A DNA stretch of 64,000 nucleotides from an uncultured Acidobacteriota bacterium (GTDB lineage: Bacteria; Acidobacteriota; UBA6911; RPQK01; JAPXNP01). The DNA lies in the NCBI GenBank assembly GCA_963777605.1, contig CAVZRV010000007.1:192001-256000 (forward strand). The letters are read 5' to 3'. The stretch's first letter is position 1. Every line of letters begins with the position of its first letter. This document shows, one piece after another, positions 16,052 through 32,895 of the stretch. The translations under genes and the position numbers were made by a program. The notes beneath the pieces were generated by a model. It did no database searches. It had not been told where the DNA came from and saw only the letters and a program-made list of their open reading frames with translations.

Positions 16052-18433
16052 TCACTGCTGCCTCGAGATTCCCCAGAAGTCATCCAGTTGGGCCCCGAGT
16101 TCGTCTGCGCCTGAGACTCGGACCGGTTTCCACTCGCGGGGCAGGAGGCGACGGTAGGGATGGCGCCTGAAGCGCTCGTCGATCAAGAGGACGACTCCCC
16201 GATCCGTTTCAGAGCGAATAACCCGGCCTGCCGCCTGGAGAACACGGTTCATTCCGGGATAGCAGTAGGCGTACTCAAACCCGCGTCTCAGCTTCCCTTC
16301 GTAGTAGTCCCGGATCAGATCCCGTTCCACCGAAATCCCCGGCAGCCCGACTCCAACTACAGCGGCACCGGTCAGTCGGTCCCCCACCAAGTCAATGGCC
16401 TCTCCGAAGATCCCTCCCAGAACGGCAAATCCGACCAGCGTCCGCCCTGAGTCCGTTGTAAAACGATCGAGGAAATCCCTTTCGATCTCCGTCCTTCATA
16501 CCAGGCTCCTGGACGATGACATCAATGTCGTGGGCCTCTACCAGGAATGACTGCAACGCCATGGACAAGATATTCATAGGAGGGGAAGAAGAGCAAGGTA
16601 GTTGCCACTCCGGCGACCGACGAACGCCATCAGACACTGAACGATCGTTTCAAGGGTGTCTTCCCGCTTGCGGTAGAGCGTGGACGCGCGGTCCATCAAG
16701 AGCGCGCAGAAGTTCTCGGGAGGAAAGGGAGAGGGCACCCGGAGCTCTAATGCCGTTTCGGAACAGCCGAGCACTGATCTGAAGTAGTCTGGCGGATCCA
16801 GAGTGGCTGACAGGAAAACCGCACAGCGGGTACGCTTCAAGGACTCTCTCAACCGATTTGAAGGGTCAACACAATAGAGGCTGACCACGAGGTCTGTGCC
16901 TGCGACCTGATAGGTCGTTCGATAGCGCTCATCATAAGCCTCTCCAGTGCGAAGAAAGTGCCCTAGAGCATAGTAGAACCCGGCAACCGATTCACGGATC
17001 GCATCGGAGAGATCAGGACGACCGGCAAGCAGTTGCTCCGCGTCCCGCAGGCACTGCGCGAGAACGGGGAAGAGATCCACCGGCTTCTCCACGGAAGTTG
17101 TGGTGTGGCCTTGTTCTTCGCAGACCTGCCTTCTCCGCAGTAGCCACGAATTGGCACGGTTGAGGGATCGAGACAGATTCCTCGCCAGCCTCTGGACTTG
17201 CCTCCGGACCTCGAGGAGGTTCTCCTTGCTGATCGCCGCCGAGTACATTTCACGGGCCCGGTCCACCAGGTTGTGGGCCTCGTCCACCAGGTAGAGTACC
17301 GATTCCTGGGCATCCAAGTCACCTCGCCGCAGGTAGACCTGGGGATCGAAGACGTAGTTGTAATCGCAGATCACGCAATCCGCAAAAGAAATCAACTCGA
17401 GCGACAACTCGAACGGGCACAACCGGTGACGCTTTGCTACACCCTCGATGACTTCCCTCGACAGGAGCTCCTCCCGGAGCAGGTTCTTGATCCCCTCCTC
17501 CAGGCGATCGTAAAAACCACGGGCAAATTCGCATTCCGCCGCTGAGCAGGCGGCTGGATCACAGAAGCAAACCTTGTCCCGGGCGGTCAACTGAAGGGCT
17601 CGAATCCGGAGTCCCCGGCTCCGGAGATCTTCGAGAGCGCTGAGGGCAACACGCTGTCCCGTACCTCTCGCCGTCAGGAAGAACATCCTGCGGAGATGCC
17701 CTTCACCCATGGCTTTGATCGAGGGAAAGATCGCTGCAACCGTTTTTCCTATTCCTGTGGGGGCCTGAACGAGCAACTGCCCTCCATCACGGACAACCTG
17801 GTACACGGCAACGGCAACTTCTCTTTGTCCGGCTCGAAAGTGAGGAAAGGGAAACTCCAGCGACCGCGCAGAATCGTTTCTCAGCTCAAGCCACTCGAGT
17901 CTCTCCCGGCAGAGACGCAGATAATGGTTGGAGATCGCTTCGAAAAAGGTCCGCAACTCATGAATCTCCCAGGTTCGGCGAGTCGATCGCTCTTCCTGGG
18001 TATCCAGTTGGTAATAGGTCAGTTGGGTTTCGACCCGTTCCAGGTCACGTCCATTCCAGAGAAGGTAGGAATAGATCCTGGCCTGGGCCCAGTGGACGGC
18101 ATTATCGAAGATCCGGTCATCACTCAGGTCGTGGCGGGTGGTCTTGATCTCTTCGACCACCGCCCGGTTCCCATGTTCGAAGACACCATCGGCCCGGCCC
18201 TCGACCTCAAGCCGGAATCCATGGCCTGTAGCCACGCCACTGAGGGGAACTTCCCGGGTGTACTCCGCAGGACGGGATTCCTGGATCTTGCGGTGGGCCC
18301 GCACCGCTTCCGCCGGGTTGGCCAACTCCCAACCACCCGGTTTCAGGTCACCCTGGCGATTCGCACTTTCGGCGAGTTGACGAACCGCGATCCTCAGGGT
18401 TTCCAGTTCAGGCTGTCCTTCCATGTTCATCAA
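16052..18433 (-). CDS. Rad3/DinG Fe-S helicase with N-terminal PD-(D/E)xK nuclease (frameshifted near 16600-16390)
   Basis: QAPTGIGKT, VDEAHN, LSATL, QAAGRVIR; Fe-S cysteines; N-terminal GRADG..VEEIKT..QARIY. Confidence 0.88.
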
Positions 18434-18481: not shown

Positions 18482-20143
18482 TCAAGGAGAAGTCACGTTG
18501 GTCTTAAGGGTATCCGAGAGAACGAGGTTTTGACGCTTCAAGGTCCGGCCGACCACGCGATCGAGACGATTGTGGCTCTTGATCAGGTCGATGCGGACAC
18601 GGAGCAGCACTGTCTCGGCCTGGAGAAGATCGCGCTGAGCCTCAATCAATTCACGGGTGGTTCCCATCCCGACAGCAAAACGCGATTCTTCTCCCTCCAT
18701 CCGCTCCCGGGCAGCACCCACCGCTGCCGTAGAGGCCTCGATGCTGGCTTCGTTCATCTCGATCTGGGTCAAAATGTCCCGGATTTCAGCACCTGCCGCC
18801 TGATAAGTCGCCGAACGTTGCATCTCCGCCCGATTCAGCTCGATCTGGGCCTGAGCGTTGGAGGCCCGGGCGTCAATGTTGGCGAGCGGGAGCTGAAGGT
18901 TGAGGCCGACGACATACCCGTAGTAGCTCCCCCCAAAGGTCTGGGAAAGGGCATCACCCAGACCGCCAGGGATGATGTTGACGATAGGCGGATCAAAAAA
19001 ACCCTGGGAGTAATCACGGATCACCTGGGTTCCACCGATGCCGAATTGCTGGTAGCCCCCGACAAACTCGAGCGAGGGCTTCAGCCGGTCGCGACTTCGT
19101 TGCAGCTCAATCCTCCGGTTGTCGATCGAGATGGCCGCCTGCTGCAGATCGGGCCGCAACTCGGAAGACTGCATCATCAATTCGTCAAACGGCTCGGGCT
19201 TGTCCGGTTGCTTTTGCTCCGTTTCCGCGGGAATGATCTCTCCCGAGAACTTCCTTGGATCGTCATATCCGGTTACCAACGTGACCAGTTGATCCTGGAC
19301 CCGGCGGGCCGTGTACTGGCTGCGGATCAGTTCCTCCTGGCGGGAGGCGACTTCCGCTTTAACCTGGACAACCTCGAGGCGGGAAGCCGTCCCGACTTCA
19401 AACCTCGCCTGGTTCTGCTCGTAAATAGTCTGGGCAAGATCGTAGGATTTTTGTTTAACGTCGATATCCTTCAGAGCGTAATCGAGGTCCCAGAACTGGT
19501 CCTGGACCTGGGAAACCACCCCGAGGACGAGATCGTAAAACTGCTGGTCGGAAAGATCGACATTGTTCCGCCCGATCTCCAGGTCGTATTCGGCATCGGC
19601 CTTTCCAAATCCTTCCAGGAGGTTTTGCCTGAAGAGGAGTTCGAACTGCGTCTGAATCGTCGGGATCAAAGAGGTGAAAAAGTTCGTGGTGCGGTTTCGA
19701 TTGCCCTTGAAAGTGATCTCGAACTTCGTTCCCGTGTGGAAGAGCTGGCTGAAACCGAGGTTGTAGTCCGTCAGGATGTCGGTGACGCTGTCGCCGCCCT
19801 GGAGAATACTGGCGGCCGGAGTTCTGCTTCGGTCCCAGGAGAAACCGAACGTGCTCAGCGGTTCGTACGGAACACGATCCTTCGCGAGATCCCAGTTGCG
19901 AAGCAACCGGTTGTGTCGCTCAACATTCAAGTTGAGATTGTTCTCCAGCGCGAGTTGGATCGCCTCACGCTCCGTCAGGTGCAGTTTCCCATCGATCCAC
20001 TTGCCGACATCACGGACTATACCGGGCTTGACCCGGGCAACTGGAACATCTTCATAGTACTTCCTGACCAGCCCGGACTGCGCATCAACCGGATTTATGG
20101 CCAAACATCCACCGATACAGAGCATTACGAGGCTTCTCAACAT
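18482..20143 (-). CDS. TolC family outer membrane efflux protein
   Basis: AIQLALENN, RFEVGTASRLEV, RFAVGMGTTRELIEAQRDL; signal peptide from ATG 20143. Confidence 0.88.
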   Translation of the reverse strand: MLRSLVMLCIGGCLAINPVDAQSGLVRKYYEDVPVARVKPGIVRDVGKWIDGKLHLTEREAIQLALENNLNLNVERHNRLLRNWDLAKDRVPYEPLSTFGFSWDRSRTPAASILQGGDSVTDILTDYNLGFSQLFHTGTKFEITFKGNRNRTTNFFTSLIPTIQTQFELLFRQNLLEGFGKADAEYDLEIGRNNVDLSDQQFYDLVLGVVSQVQDQFWDLDYALKDIDVKQKSYDLAQTIYEQNQARFEVGTASRLEVVQVKAEVASRQEELIRSQYTARRVQDQLVTLVTGYDDPRKFSGEIIPAETEQKQPDKPEPFDELMMQSSELRPDLQQAAISIDNRRIELQRSRDRLKPSLEFVGGYQQFGIGGTQVIRDYSQGFFDPPIVNIIPGGLGDALSQTFGGSYYGYVVGLNLQLPLANIDARASNAQAQIELNRAEMQRSATYQAAGAEIRDILTQIEMNEASIEASTAAVGAARERMEGEESRFAVGMGTTRELIEAQRDLLQAETVLLRVRIDLIKSHNRLDRVVGRTLKRQNLVLSDTLKTNVTSP

Positions 20144-20427
20144 GGGGGTCTCTCTCCGAGCATTCGAATGCAGCTTCGCCCAAGTCTCCCGGCGGAAGTA
20201 AACCTGACTGTCTTTCCGAAAGCAACCTTGCGCTCTCGAGGGGCGCCCGACCCGGATACGAAGATTACTGTCCCTCAAACTGGCAATCATGTTTCCAGGC
20301 CGGTTCGGTCCGGTCTCAACGGGAAAACATACTCCATCCTTCAAAGCAGAGTCAAAATCAGGCTGATTCCAAAACGCCCACATCGCCCACTGCTATGTTT
20401 AAAAATAGCGCTTCAATTATGACAAAC

Positions 20428-20546
20428 GTGAAAATTTTTCACATCCTGTGGATTTTGGATGTGGAATTACCGTGACATTCTCTGCTTTCGACCAATTCTC
20501 GCAGCGGATTTTCACTAATCAATCCAGTTGCACACATTTTGTGCAA
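20428..20546. promoter_or_regulatory. Palindromic putative transcription-factor sites
   Basis: GTGAAAA-T-TTTTCAC (20428-20442), CACATCC-N10-GGATGTG (20440-20463), TTGCACA-N5-TGTGCAA (20528-20546). Confidence 0.5.
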
Positions 20547-20568
20547 ATTGGACAGAGGCATTTTTCTC

Positions 20569-20597
20569 TTGGCCACTCCGCAGATGCTGCCTAGAAT
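20569..20597 (+). promoter_or_regulatory. Sigma70-type promoter
   Basis: TTGGCC-N17-TAGAAT, 3-7 nt upstream of the closing stem of the structured RNA. Confidence 0.6.
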
Positions 20598-20600
20598 CGA

Positions 20601-20990
20601 AATTGTCCCAAGGGGTAGACGCAAAAGAGGTTGGAACCCCGAAGGCAGTCTTCCTGGCCAGGTTTCTCGAAGGCTTTGTTTCGCGACGAAGCTGCTGAGG
20701 GGTCAACTTAGGCTGGGAAGACAACGGGATTGGACTTGTCCTCTTTCCGAAACACCTTCGAAATGGCGTCCCTGGCAATTGGTGCTGTTCCGTGGAATGG
20801 GCCATACCTTGACCACGACGGGCCTTTTGTCAGACCGGCAGGTTGATGGCACCTTGAGCCGCCCGCTTCGGCTGGATGTTGAGGTTGTCGGACTTGCCGG
20901 GCGAGGTGAGACGGTTTCTCCGGGAAACTTGACTTGCCAAGCAACCAGGCGCACCGACCTTGAGCGAATATCACTTGGGACAATTCTTTT
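20601..20990 (+). ncRNA. Unassigned large structured non-coding RNA (~385 nt)
   Basis: 12-bp closing stem AATTGTCCCAAG/CTTGGGACAATT followed by CTTTTCT; about 8 nested helices with G-U pairs on the + strand; upstream promoter; no credible ORF. Confidence 0.7.
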
Positions 20991-21152
20991 CTCCGGTAAG
21001 AAACCTTAGAAAGCCTGCTGAGCGACACGTTTCCCTTGCGCGTTATCATCCCGACCCCAATTTTCACCCAGTGAATAAACCCCGAGAAGCGGGAAGGTCG
21101 GGGAGGTCTTGAAACGTTGCCGGCGCAGTGCGAAACTGGCAGCCACAACGTT

Positions 21153-21935
21153 ATGAAGAAAATCTACGTCATTCTCGTCGTCCTCCTGGCTCTCTCAATC
21201 ATAAATACAGTGCCCGGTCAGGCACCCCAAGCTCATAAGAAGCGCCTGCTGGCGGTGGGGATGTCGGAAGGCTGGCAGCACGACTCCGTTTCCGACGCGC
21301 TCGCCACGCTGTATGAACTGGGACAGGAGACCGGTCTCTGGGAAACTTACATAAGAACCGACACCCAGTTGATCACCAAGAAGGAACTGCCGATGAACGG
21401 CAGAAATCTGGACTACTTCGATGCCGTTTTCTTCATGACCACGGGGGAACTCCCCATGAATGACGAACAGAAGGCGGCACTCCTTTCCTTCGTTCGCGAC
21501 GACGGCAAGGGATTCCTCGGCGCGCACAACGCGACAGACACGTTCTACCAGTGGCCCGAGTACGGCGAGATGATCGGGGGCTATTTTGACGGACACCCCT
21601 GGAACCAGTTCGAGGCCACGATCAAGGTGCTGGACCACAACTTTCCGGCGACCCGGCATTTCCCGGACACGTTCAAAATCTACGATGAGATCTACCAGAC
21701 CAAGAACTTTGACCCGGACAAAGTCAGAGTGCTGATGACCCTCGATACCAGCAAGCTGGACATGAAGCGGGACGGGGTCAAACACTCGGAGATTCCGATC
21801 ACGTGGGTTCGCTCCTACGGAAAAGGCCGTGTCTTCTACTGCGGACTCGGGCATCCTCCCGCAGTCTGGCAAAGACCCGATATCCGGACGATGTGGACCG
21901 AGGCCGTGAAGTGGGCGACGGGGATCACCAGGTAA
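21153..21935 (+). CDS. ThuA-like domain protein, secreted
   Basis: Signal peptide; GWQHDS, GFLGAHNATDT, GGYFDGHPW, DEIY, GRVFYCGLGH. Confidence 0.85.
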   Translation: MKKIYVILVVLLALSIINTVPGQAPQAHKKRLLAVGMSEGWQHDSVSDALATLYELGQETGLWETYIRTDTQLITKKELPMNGRNLDYFDAVFFMTTGELPMNDEQKAALLSFVRDDGKGFLGAHNATDTFYQWPEYGEMIGGYFDGHPWNQFEATIKVLDHNFPATRHFPDTFKIYDEIYQTKNFDPDKVRVLMTLDTSKLDMKRDGVKHSEIPITWVRSYGKGRVFYCGLGHPPAVWQRPDIRTMWTEAVKWATGITR

Positions 21936-32819: not shown

Positions 32820-32895
32820 GCCGGCGTAGCTCAATCGGTAGAGCGACGCATTCGTAATGCGTAGGTTGGGGGTTCAATTCCCTTCGCCGGCTCCA
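32820..32895 (+). tRNA. tRNA-Thr(CGT)
   Basis: Acceptor GCCGGCG/CGCCGGC, D arm GCTC/GAGC, anticodon arm ACGCA-TTCGTAA-TGCGT, T loop TTCAATT, encoded CCA. Confidence 0.97.

Follow-up and report, generated by a model that had tools for sequence, protein, structure and literature searches.

Large, intricately folded bacterial RNAs are rare, and those found in the past have been ribozymes, cores of ribonucleoproteins (RNPs) or, recently, RNA-only assemblies; two of them, GOLLD and ROOL, are often associated with phages or with tRNAs. According to the portions of two reports drawn on here, OLE, from Bacillota, is a component of an RNP (PMC9723947, PMC12054373), and the consulted sections of two others describe the raiA motif RNA, from Bacillota and Actinomycetota, as a stand-alone, apparently abundant and structured RNA of many species (PMC12968392, PMC10861870). 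Here we describe an RNA gene of 377 nucleotides (nt) at positions 20605-20981 on the + strand of a 64,000-nt stretch of DNA from an uncultured Acidobacteriota bacterium (assembly GCA_963777605.1, contig CAVZRV010000007.1, positions 192,001 to 256,000; the whole stretch is hereafter called the window). A sequence-only reading of the window had proposed at this site a stand-alone large ornate RNA, possibly of an undescribed class. That proposal is supported by our analyses, given that the gene is single-copy, its signals are conserved, its helices covary and it falls into no Rfam family, and we consider it very probable that this is a real, undescribed, stand-alone RNA.

The limits of the gene were placed from the ends conserved in its relatives, with G20605 (+/-1) as the predicted 5' end and C20981 as the last paired base, which corrects an earlier estimate of about 385 nt to about 377 nt plus a short U-rich tail. 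The promoter-like site that the sequence-only reading had pointed out, TTGGCC-N17-TAGAAT, is found by the promoter scan at 20569-20597 on the + strand: a T-rich tract runs into a -35-like hexamer (TTTTTCTC TTGGCC, 20561-20574, with the hexamer at 20569-20574), and the -10 hexamer TAGAAT (20592-20597) stands 7 nt ahead of the first base of the RNA. These signals recur among the 43 full-length homologs that we gathered (42 distinct sequences and one metagenome contig), all of which possess an 18-base-pair (bp) terminal rod, P1. A TANNNT hexamer ends 7-8 nt before the first G of GUCCCAAG in 42 of the 43 and TTG is present at 16-19 nt spacing from the -10 box in 37, with an upstream T-rich tract also visible. 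At the other end P1 directly abuts a T-run in 43/43 homologs, with at least 5 T among the first 10 nt 3' of P1 in every one; the corresponding tail of the window copy, AAUUCUUUUCUCC (20982-20994, +), is U-rich and terminator-like. A scan for local-hairpin terminators reported none on the + strand here, because the stem in question is long-range, being closed over 370-700 nt. We regard the gene limits, the strand, the conserved promoter and the T-run as established, along with the covariation of the structure, the spread through the order and the lack of a known-family match described below, and from the conserved -10 position and the T-run after P1 we infer, on sequence grounds, a transcript that would open with the first base of the terminal helix and end just past its last. 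The closing stem had originally been read as 12 bp; all 12 are present in the fold, but only 8, GUCCCAAG/CUUGGGAC (20605-20612/20974-20981), are conserved in relatives, the outer AATT/AATT being specific to the window, with its 5' half falling after the -10 box but ahead of the likely start.

The + strand of 20601-20990 folds with a minimum free energy (MFE) of -172.1 kcal/mol, compared with -139.7 +/- 5.2 kcal/mol for dinucleotide shuffles (z -6.20; 0/100 shuffles as good), and its reverse complement reaches -130.4 kcal/mol (z -1.30; 8/100 shuffles as good). The fold is strand-specific and 27 of its 137 pairs are G-U, in agreement with the many + strand G-U pairs remarked on previously. All features of the fold lie on the + strand. 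P1 pairs GUCCCAAGGGGUAGACGC (20605-20622) with GCGAAUAUCACUUGGGAC (20964-20981), the latter strand holding a conserved non-Watson-Crick G9.A and a tandem G14.A / A15.A. P2 pairs GAGGUUGG (20627-20634) with CCGACCUU (20954-20961) in the MFE helix table and is one of three extensions of the closing stem that had been read off the sequence and that all occur in the MFE fold, the others being GGUA/UAUC and CGC/GCG; the equivalent of P2 in relatives differs in sequence. Domain I (20640-20760), the start of which, CCCNGARG, is conserved across the whole RNA family, is closed in the MFE fold by CGAAGG/CCUUCG (20640-20645/20755-20760) around a long arm, H1 (20648-20722, loop UCGC), and a short CGGGA/UUCCG hairpin, H2 (20725-20749), just as the sequence-only reading had drawn it. 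Domain II (20766-20952) has the closing helix expected from that reading (GCGUC/GGCGC, 20766-20770/20948-20952) and forms a four-way junction with H4 (20772-20833), H5 (20835-20900, apex GCUUCGGC) and H6 (20901-20942, in the short form typical of f1, the window's own family); H5 and H6 are placed by both the MFE fold and the f1 alignment. Four hairpins had been counted in this domain, the first two of which are in fact a single long arm, H4. The loop of H4, CCAUA at 20802-20806, belongs to a YCAUN type common to f1, f4 and part of f5 (families, genera, genomes and loci are given here under our own f, g, G and L numbers). H3 of the relatives of about 450 nt is missing from the window copy, which is left with P1, P2, H1, a short H2, H4, H5 and a short H6.

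A single plan is shared by the MFE folds of 17 representatives, in which a long-range rod, P1-P2, encloses two domains; P1 consists of 8 bp, a G.A mismatch, 4 bp, a tandem G.A/A.A and 3 bp, and P2 comes next. In the ~450-nt class, three hairpins radiate from a four-way junction in each domain (H1-H3 of about 60, 40 and 57 nt; H4-H6 of about 78, 67 and 53 nt). Comparisons among relatives were made on structure-blind MAFFT (L-INS-i) alignments and with RNAalifold, using 33 sequences shorter than 500 nt. When these 33 are folded separately by MFE, the six hairpins fall in the same MAFFT column ranges, and RNAalifold on the plain MAFFT alignment gives 45 pairs, 28 of them changed on both sides. 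A relaxed consensus of the 33 relatives has 136 pairs in 22 helices, with 79.8% of cells paired, 97 pairs changed on both sides and a covariation score of 0.387, versus 37.6-48.6%, 55-74 and 0.10-0.17, respectively, when the partner is slid by 1-3 columns; none of 500 shuffles reaches any of five measures, and the slid control is the fairer of the two, since structure and counts share one alignment. P1 is paired in 96.8% of cells across the 33 sequences, 10 of its 16 pairs being invariant and 3 showing compensatory changes; paired changes include A13-U to G-C in 7 sequences and G17-C to A-U in 9, and C18-G becomes U-A or G-C in further loci. The long form of H6 found in the other families, realigned alone, has 17 pairs, 15 of them changed on both sides, with 92% standard pairs. 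Eleven representatives give z scores of -4.2 to -11.6 on the + strand and of +0.1 to -4.4 on the - strand.

In most other f1 RNAs, H1-H3 are joined by a small additional hairpin in Domain I and by a four-way module of about 200 nt, an insertion that brings a further three hairpins. In the 3' halves of 11 f1-type RNAs, the window copy included, H4 (loop CCAUA versus GGUCAUCCC or GCUCAUAC), the H5 apex and H6 lie in register, and their alignment has 44 pairs, 31 changed on both sides, with 78.9% paired as opposed to 41.8-50.8% in the slid control. The covariation by which the sequence-only reading had proposed to check its candidate is present in the RNAalifold consensus, in the 136-pair count and in these f1 3' halves. 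Interior hairpins of f1 are equated with those of the other families by position, by architecture and through the f1 alignment; sequence homology between them is not detectable.

Two further observations concern P1. In relatives, the 5' strand of the H6 basal stem (CCACUUGGG in f5 genus g14, CCACUUGAG in f6) repeats the P1 3' 8-mer CACUUGGG, and its partner strand resembles the P1 5' strand (an example from the ~450-nt class is the H6 at L053:3582-3637 on the - strand); judging by these shared strands, alternative P1-H6 pairings might form during transcription. Secondly, the large genomes of genus g18 (G241, G261, G457, G459 and G460; 6.7-9.5 Mb) harbour two RNA paralogs (L047/L049/L098/L133 versus L048/L050/L119/L132/L152), which mostly differ in P1 by a compensatory change of G-C to A-U (GACGC/GCGAA versus GACAC/GUGAA), G459 having the GACGC form at both sites; one copy lies upstream of asd and the other beside a convergent PPDK-like gene.

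The window copy is the shortest of the homologs at 377 nt, most families having RNAs of 419-485 nt and most of f1 598-718 nt. BLAST within f1 yields matches in 10 of the 15 other genomes, at the two ends of the query only; at f1 loci a 5' end GTCCCAAGGGGTAGACGC and a 3' end GCGAATATCACTTGGGAC followed by a T-run stand 598-695 nt apart, versus 377 nt in the window. A degenerate pattern for the 5' 18-mer occurs in 49 of the 76 genomes of the window's order, and in none of the 76 when reversed as a control. A covariance model of H5+H6, termed R1 and built from 31 non-f1 sequences, matches 46 order genomes, nine of which are without the exact 18-mer; the loci in those nine keep the same ends with few substitutions. 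Combined, the 18-mer pattern and R1 place the RNA in 58 of the 76 order genomes (the f3 tally of 1/1 is the unpublished genome G063 alone, the locus of which, L100, was left out of all alignments). Copy number is one per order genome and rarely two, two being found in five of the six g18 genomes and in G464 and G465. Second matches of R1 over H2+H3 are weak (11.9, 11.2 and 8.1 bits, E 0.3-2.7, at 3 of 11 loci) and do not show a domain duplication.

Beyond the order the searches return nothing convincing. Across 401 genomes of the phylum, a pattern scan finds exact and one-mismatch matches only in the window's order; two-mismatch matches elsewhere in the phylum are about as common as those of the reversed control, and the 30 such loci that were fetched have no matching 3' end. 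R1 matches 0/51 f9 genomes, and BLAST of a 437-nt relative against 61 genomes of the class found nothing convincing beyond the order. The single R1 match outside it, in G370 (30.2 bits, E 7.5e-4), was rejected as having no P1-like ends nearby, as were matches from Streptomyces, Saccharibacteria and others in genome collections, together with L056, L069, L074, L115 and L129, which lack the promoter and the 3' end and lie in coding-like sequence. Carriers in a public genome scan are named only as Acidobacteriota metagenome-assembled genomes. The f1-type 5' pattern retrieves one metagenome contig, L182, with an f1-type RNA of 718 nt that is not close to the window copy, and a 22-mer from H5 retrieves 0 metagenome contigs. 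Three IMG/VR contigs with the 18-mer (L184, L185 and L186) were also rejected, the 18-mer there being an arm of a hairpin of about 35 nt, GUCCCAAG...CUUCUGGGAC, with no 3' partner. These viral contigs are near-identical to one another, carry the 18-mer directly after a TATAA box and bear no further likeness to the RNA.

Contigs from RNA libraries cover the body of the RNA, in keeping with the transcript that the sequence-only reading had expected. Twenty sequencing runs are listed as containing part of the stretch, nearly all at a share of about 0.05, and the contig comparison took in X1, X3, X4 and X9, the first of which is a DNA run covering only 20400-20597. Three metatranscriptome runs from three studies (salt marsh, freshwater sediment and mangrove) provide 13, 2 and 2 contigs at 85% identity or above; these sit on 20660-20980, with mean word depths of up to 3267, 17.6 and 1544, and leave 20400-20642 and 20994-21200 uncovered, parts that prove nothing. 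Of the 19 variants listed at paired positions (nt at least 150), 14 leave a standard pair intact without a second change and 5 break it; outside this tally are seven unlisted variants and six in the 3' strand of H1, whose pairing partners the aligned contig does not reach. A G.U pair is replaced by A-U in one lineage and by G-C in a second, and a C-G by U-A in one contig; none of the variants listed in RNA-library contigs lies in 20850-20911 (H5). One contig stops at 20980 and continues with 13 adapter-like letters, which we take to be Illumina adapter. This junction would put a fragment end 1-2 nt from the end of P1, and, as one record, is a weak hint.

Comparison of the whole window with the 4227 families of Rfam 15 at gathering thresholds finds nothing on the RNA, the family check to which the sequence-only reading had tied the novelty of its candidate; the sole match in the 64 kb is a tRNA gene at 32820-32892 (+; 71.8 bits). 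At E<=10, the only matches in region 20350-21200 are three to eukaryotic families (E 6.5-7.4), each on the - strand, and a permissive scan of 18 relatives' loci (9 + 9) gives no match on the RNA. The release scanned presumably includes OLE, GOLLD, ROOL, HEARO, raiA, Acido-1, Acido-Lenti-1, the asd motif, the lysine riboswitch and Y RNA-like families. Nor is this a known housekeeping RNA, as had rightly been supposed: the Rfam scans give no match here to RNase P RNA, signal recognition particle (SRP) RNA, tmRNA or 6S RNA, and all four genes (rnpB, ffs, ssrA and ssrS) are present on other contigs of the genome, with RNase P (RF00010) at 304.3 bits, tmRNA (RF00023) at 181.6 bits, SRP (RF00169) at 72.3 bits and a canonical 6S RNA (RF00013) at G000:C11:160022-160175 (63.5 bits versus a cut-off of 46.4). 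Consequently, the window RNA is an additional RNA and not a housekeeping RNA in disguise. Two further candidate identities were considered and rejected. A sponge for CsrA, a protein that the genome does encode (81.9 bits), would be expected to be rich in GGA, yet the GGA density found, 3.44 per 100 nt, hardly differs from that of shuffles (3.43), and hairpin loops hold just 2 of the 716 GGA; against a Ro/Y RNA, the genome, which is 96.7% complete, has no PF05731 (TROVE) match. No description of such an RNA was found in the parts of the literature covered, the supplementary lists of motif-discovery papers being a place where one might be held, and term look-ups of Acidobacteri* in two such papers returned no mention (PMC11109978, PMC8632094).

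The explanation that we favour, and consider probable, is a stand-alone gene for a stable structured non-coding RNA, of a family not in Rfam 15, that may act in trans as an RNP or architectural RNA. Transcription would begin from the gene's own sigma-70-type promoter at the first base of the terminal helix and stop at the U-tract directly past the last base of that helix, such that the primary transcript would itself be the mature folded molecule, with both termini locked in the rod P1-P2 and two multi-hairpin domains attached. The rod could serve at once as terminator stem, as shield against exonucleases and as docking or recognition platform, since its sequence, and not just its pairing, is nearly fixed order-wide, with fixed non-Watson-Crick pairs. 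The hairpin domains (about 1.5 in the window, 2 in most relatives and 3 in most f1) may be peripheral or multivalent binding modules, and are read as peripheral because lineages gain and lose them. It is this combination of locked rod, rod platform and peripheral domains that leads us to favour a trans-acting RNP or architectural RNA; for the scaffold or RNP mechanism as such, our support is tentative and stops short of a commitment.

Several points weigh against this explanation. No partner protein, target or ligand has been identified, and a terminator stem closed over 370-700 nt would be unusual. The interior of the window copy has no detectable homology to the ~450-nt class (run with its filters off, R1 reaches 4.7 bits there, at E 0.15, and is thus no basis for aligning the window copy), R1 gives a weak match at only one of nine f1 loci, and the 136-pair structure was derived from the same alignment on which its pairs were counted. 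The RNA-library contigs come from relatives (85-99% alike) and are not a mapped transcript of this organism, with ends, strand and level unreadable, and RNA libraries can hold DNA. Moreover, 18 of the 76 order genomes are negative in both searches, near-complete ones included; among the negatives are f1 genus g7 (3/3, 97-98% complete), which is also without the ThuA neighbour described below, f107 (5/5), f2, f106 and the f4 genomes G435, G251 and G090 (1.9-2.5 Mb). In these genomes the RNA has either diverged beyond detection or is not universal to the order.

Foremost among the alternatives, although we consider it unlikely, is that the molecule works as a catalytic RNA or as a self-assembling RNA-only multimer, in the manner of GOLLD, ROOL or OLE, rather than as a protein scaffold. 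Size, multiple junctions, repeated three-hairpin modules and conserved helix sequence are traits of large ornate RNAs, and homo-oligomers are reported for GOLLD, ROOL and OLE in the portions consulted of two papers (PMC12286853, 10.1101/2024.12.08.627333). However, the Rfam models reveal no likeness to GOLLD, ROOL or OLE, and no conserved kissing-loop candidates were found, the loops being mostly UUCG or GNRA and varying between lineages.

A cis-acting leader or attenuator, in which formation of P1 ahead of the U-tract would respond to a sensed signal and thereby set read-through into the downstream gene, appears improbable once the genomic neighbourhood is considered. Its appeal lies in the same-strand gene found about 80-400 nt downstream in many lineages, and in the fact that a long-range P1 would tie termination to the fold of the whole RNA. 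In the window, a divergent TolC-like OEP gene lies upstream and a ThuA-family gene downstream on the same strand. A member of the gene cluster of this ThuA is likewise downstream and on the same strand at L003, L005 and L010, and is listed at an upstream offset at L004; L002 has the divergent OEP gene upstream. In f4, a class-II fumarase/aspartase-type lyase gene is divergent upstream and an amidase gene lies downstream (5/5 f4 loci). Downstream of the RNA in f5, f6, L154 and L160 are asd, aspartokinase and dapB genes on the same strand, aspartokinase in f5 genus g14 and asd in f6, at the second g18 paralog and at L154 and L160. The nearest downstream gene is convergent in the first-paralog group (L047/L049/L098) and at L008, L009 and L044, an arrangement at odds with a leader, as is the functional unrelatedness of the downstream genes across families (ThuA, amidase, aspartate pathway). 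Neighbours are syntenic within families and share no theme across them, which speaks for a stand-alone gene that local synteny has carried along and against the leader of one pathway. The T-run is, furthermore, kept in 43/43 homologs, models of the lysine riboswitch and the asd motif have no match at the window or at relatives' loci, and 377-718 nt far exceeds known leaders.

An elaborated 6S-like RNA that binds RNA polymerase, the second suggestion of the sequence-only reading, finds no support and is very improbable. A stand-alone gene, paired ends and a strong promoter would all suit it, yet the genome has its ordinary 6S RNA elsewhere, the 6S model has no match on the window even at E<=10, and the fold comprises two branched domains with no central bubble resembling an open promoter. 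Least credible of all is a mobile or selfish element, such as a miniature inverted-repeat transposable element (MITE), or a protein-coding region, as the perfect 12-bp inverted repeat at the RNA ends has only 8 of its 12 bp conserved, the region matches only itself in its own 6.73-Mb genome, one or rarely two copies per order genome amid neighbours syntenic within families are not the dispersed copies by which the sequence-only reading would have recognised a MITE, blastn finds no match in plasmid or phage collections (the IMG/VR 18-mer belonging to an unrelated short hairpin), and the open reading frames (ORFs) overlapping the RNA (156 aa, +; 146 aa, -) match no Pfam family, the longest stop-free frame on either strand of the 43 homologs ranging over 61-202 aa, unconserved and with many alignment gaps.

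Some observations on the surroundings stand apart from the RNA itself. The class-II fumarase/aspartase-type lyase gene is divergently upstream of the RNA at the f4 loci L057, L059, L060 and L082 and also at L006, L009 and L151, and the ancestral site of the RNA may be the gap between two aspartate-pathway units. At L154, some 2 kb upstream of the RNA, there is an unrelated group II intron (774-2582, -; RF01999 112 bits, RF00029 59.6 bits). In the window, two ORFs of about 630 aa overlap almost completely on opposite strands (18482-20383, -; 18530-20422, +); Pfam recognises only that on the - strand (OEP, TolC-like), and the + strand ORF is probably a GC-rich shadow frame. A 619-aa ORF at 16574-18433 (-) has a PD-(D/E)XK nuclease domain (residues 12-170) and DEAD_2/HBB domains of Rad3/DinG-type helicases, and may be a nuclease-helicase fusion.

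Each new class of large RNA is a direct entry to new biochemistry, and this one is ready for experiment, with more than 50 natural variants, predicted ends, promoter and terminator, and both a minimal (377 nt) and expanded (up to 718 nt) versions. The RNA also serves to mark an entire uncultured Acidobacteriota order, and provides a case in which to test whether a stem spanning the full transcript can bring about termination.

Set beside the systems already described, the window RNA is likely to be the first example of a class of large ornate bacterial RNAs on a par with OLE, ROOL, GOLLD and raiA: 377-718 nt in length, with a near-invariant rod that would double as a long-range terminator, about 1.5, 2 or 3 three-hairpin modules, and an RNP, catalytic or self-assembly job. 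The housekeeping RNAs offer partial parallels. Like RNase P RNA, tmRNA and SRP RNA, it is single-copy, with a good promoter, a conserved core and lineage-specific peripheral helices, but it is limited to one order and was not found in some families of that order. With 6S RNA (RF00013) it shares a stand-alone gene and 5' and 3' ends that pair into a closing stem, whereas 6S RNA is of about 180 nt and forms a rod with a central bubble. The likeness to GOLLD and ROOL lies in being a large ornate bacterial RNA with multi-stem junctions; in contrast to these, the window RNA is single-copy and chromosomal and has no Rfam, phage or plasmid match, IMG/VR holding only the unrelated 18-mer. The raiA motif RNA is likewise a stand-alone, apparently abundant and structured RNA found across many species, yet the window RNA has about double its size and a modular architecture of two or three domains, occurs in a single order of Acidobacteriota and has no match to Rfam. 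OLE resembles it in comprising several hundred nt with many junctions and hairpins, in its near-invariant patches and in being lineage-restricted and chromosomal, whereas the window RNA belongs to another phylum, is without an Rfam match, has its conserved element in the terminal rod, shows no kink-turn-type 3-nt bulge and has no associated protein genes beside it. We thus assign the window RNA to a new class, whose nearest counterparts in kind are OLE, raiA, GOLLD and ROOL, but it belongs to none of these.

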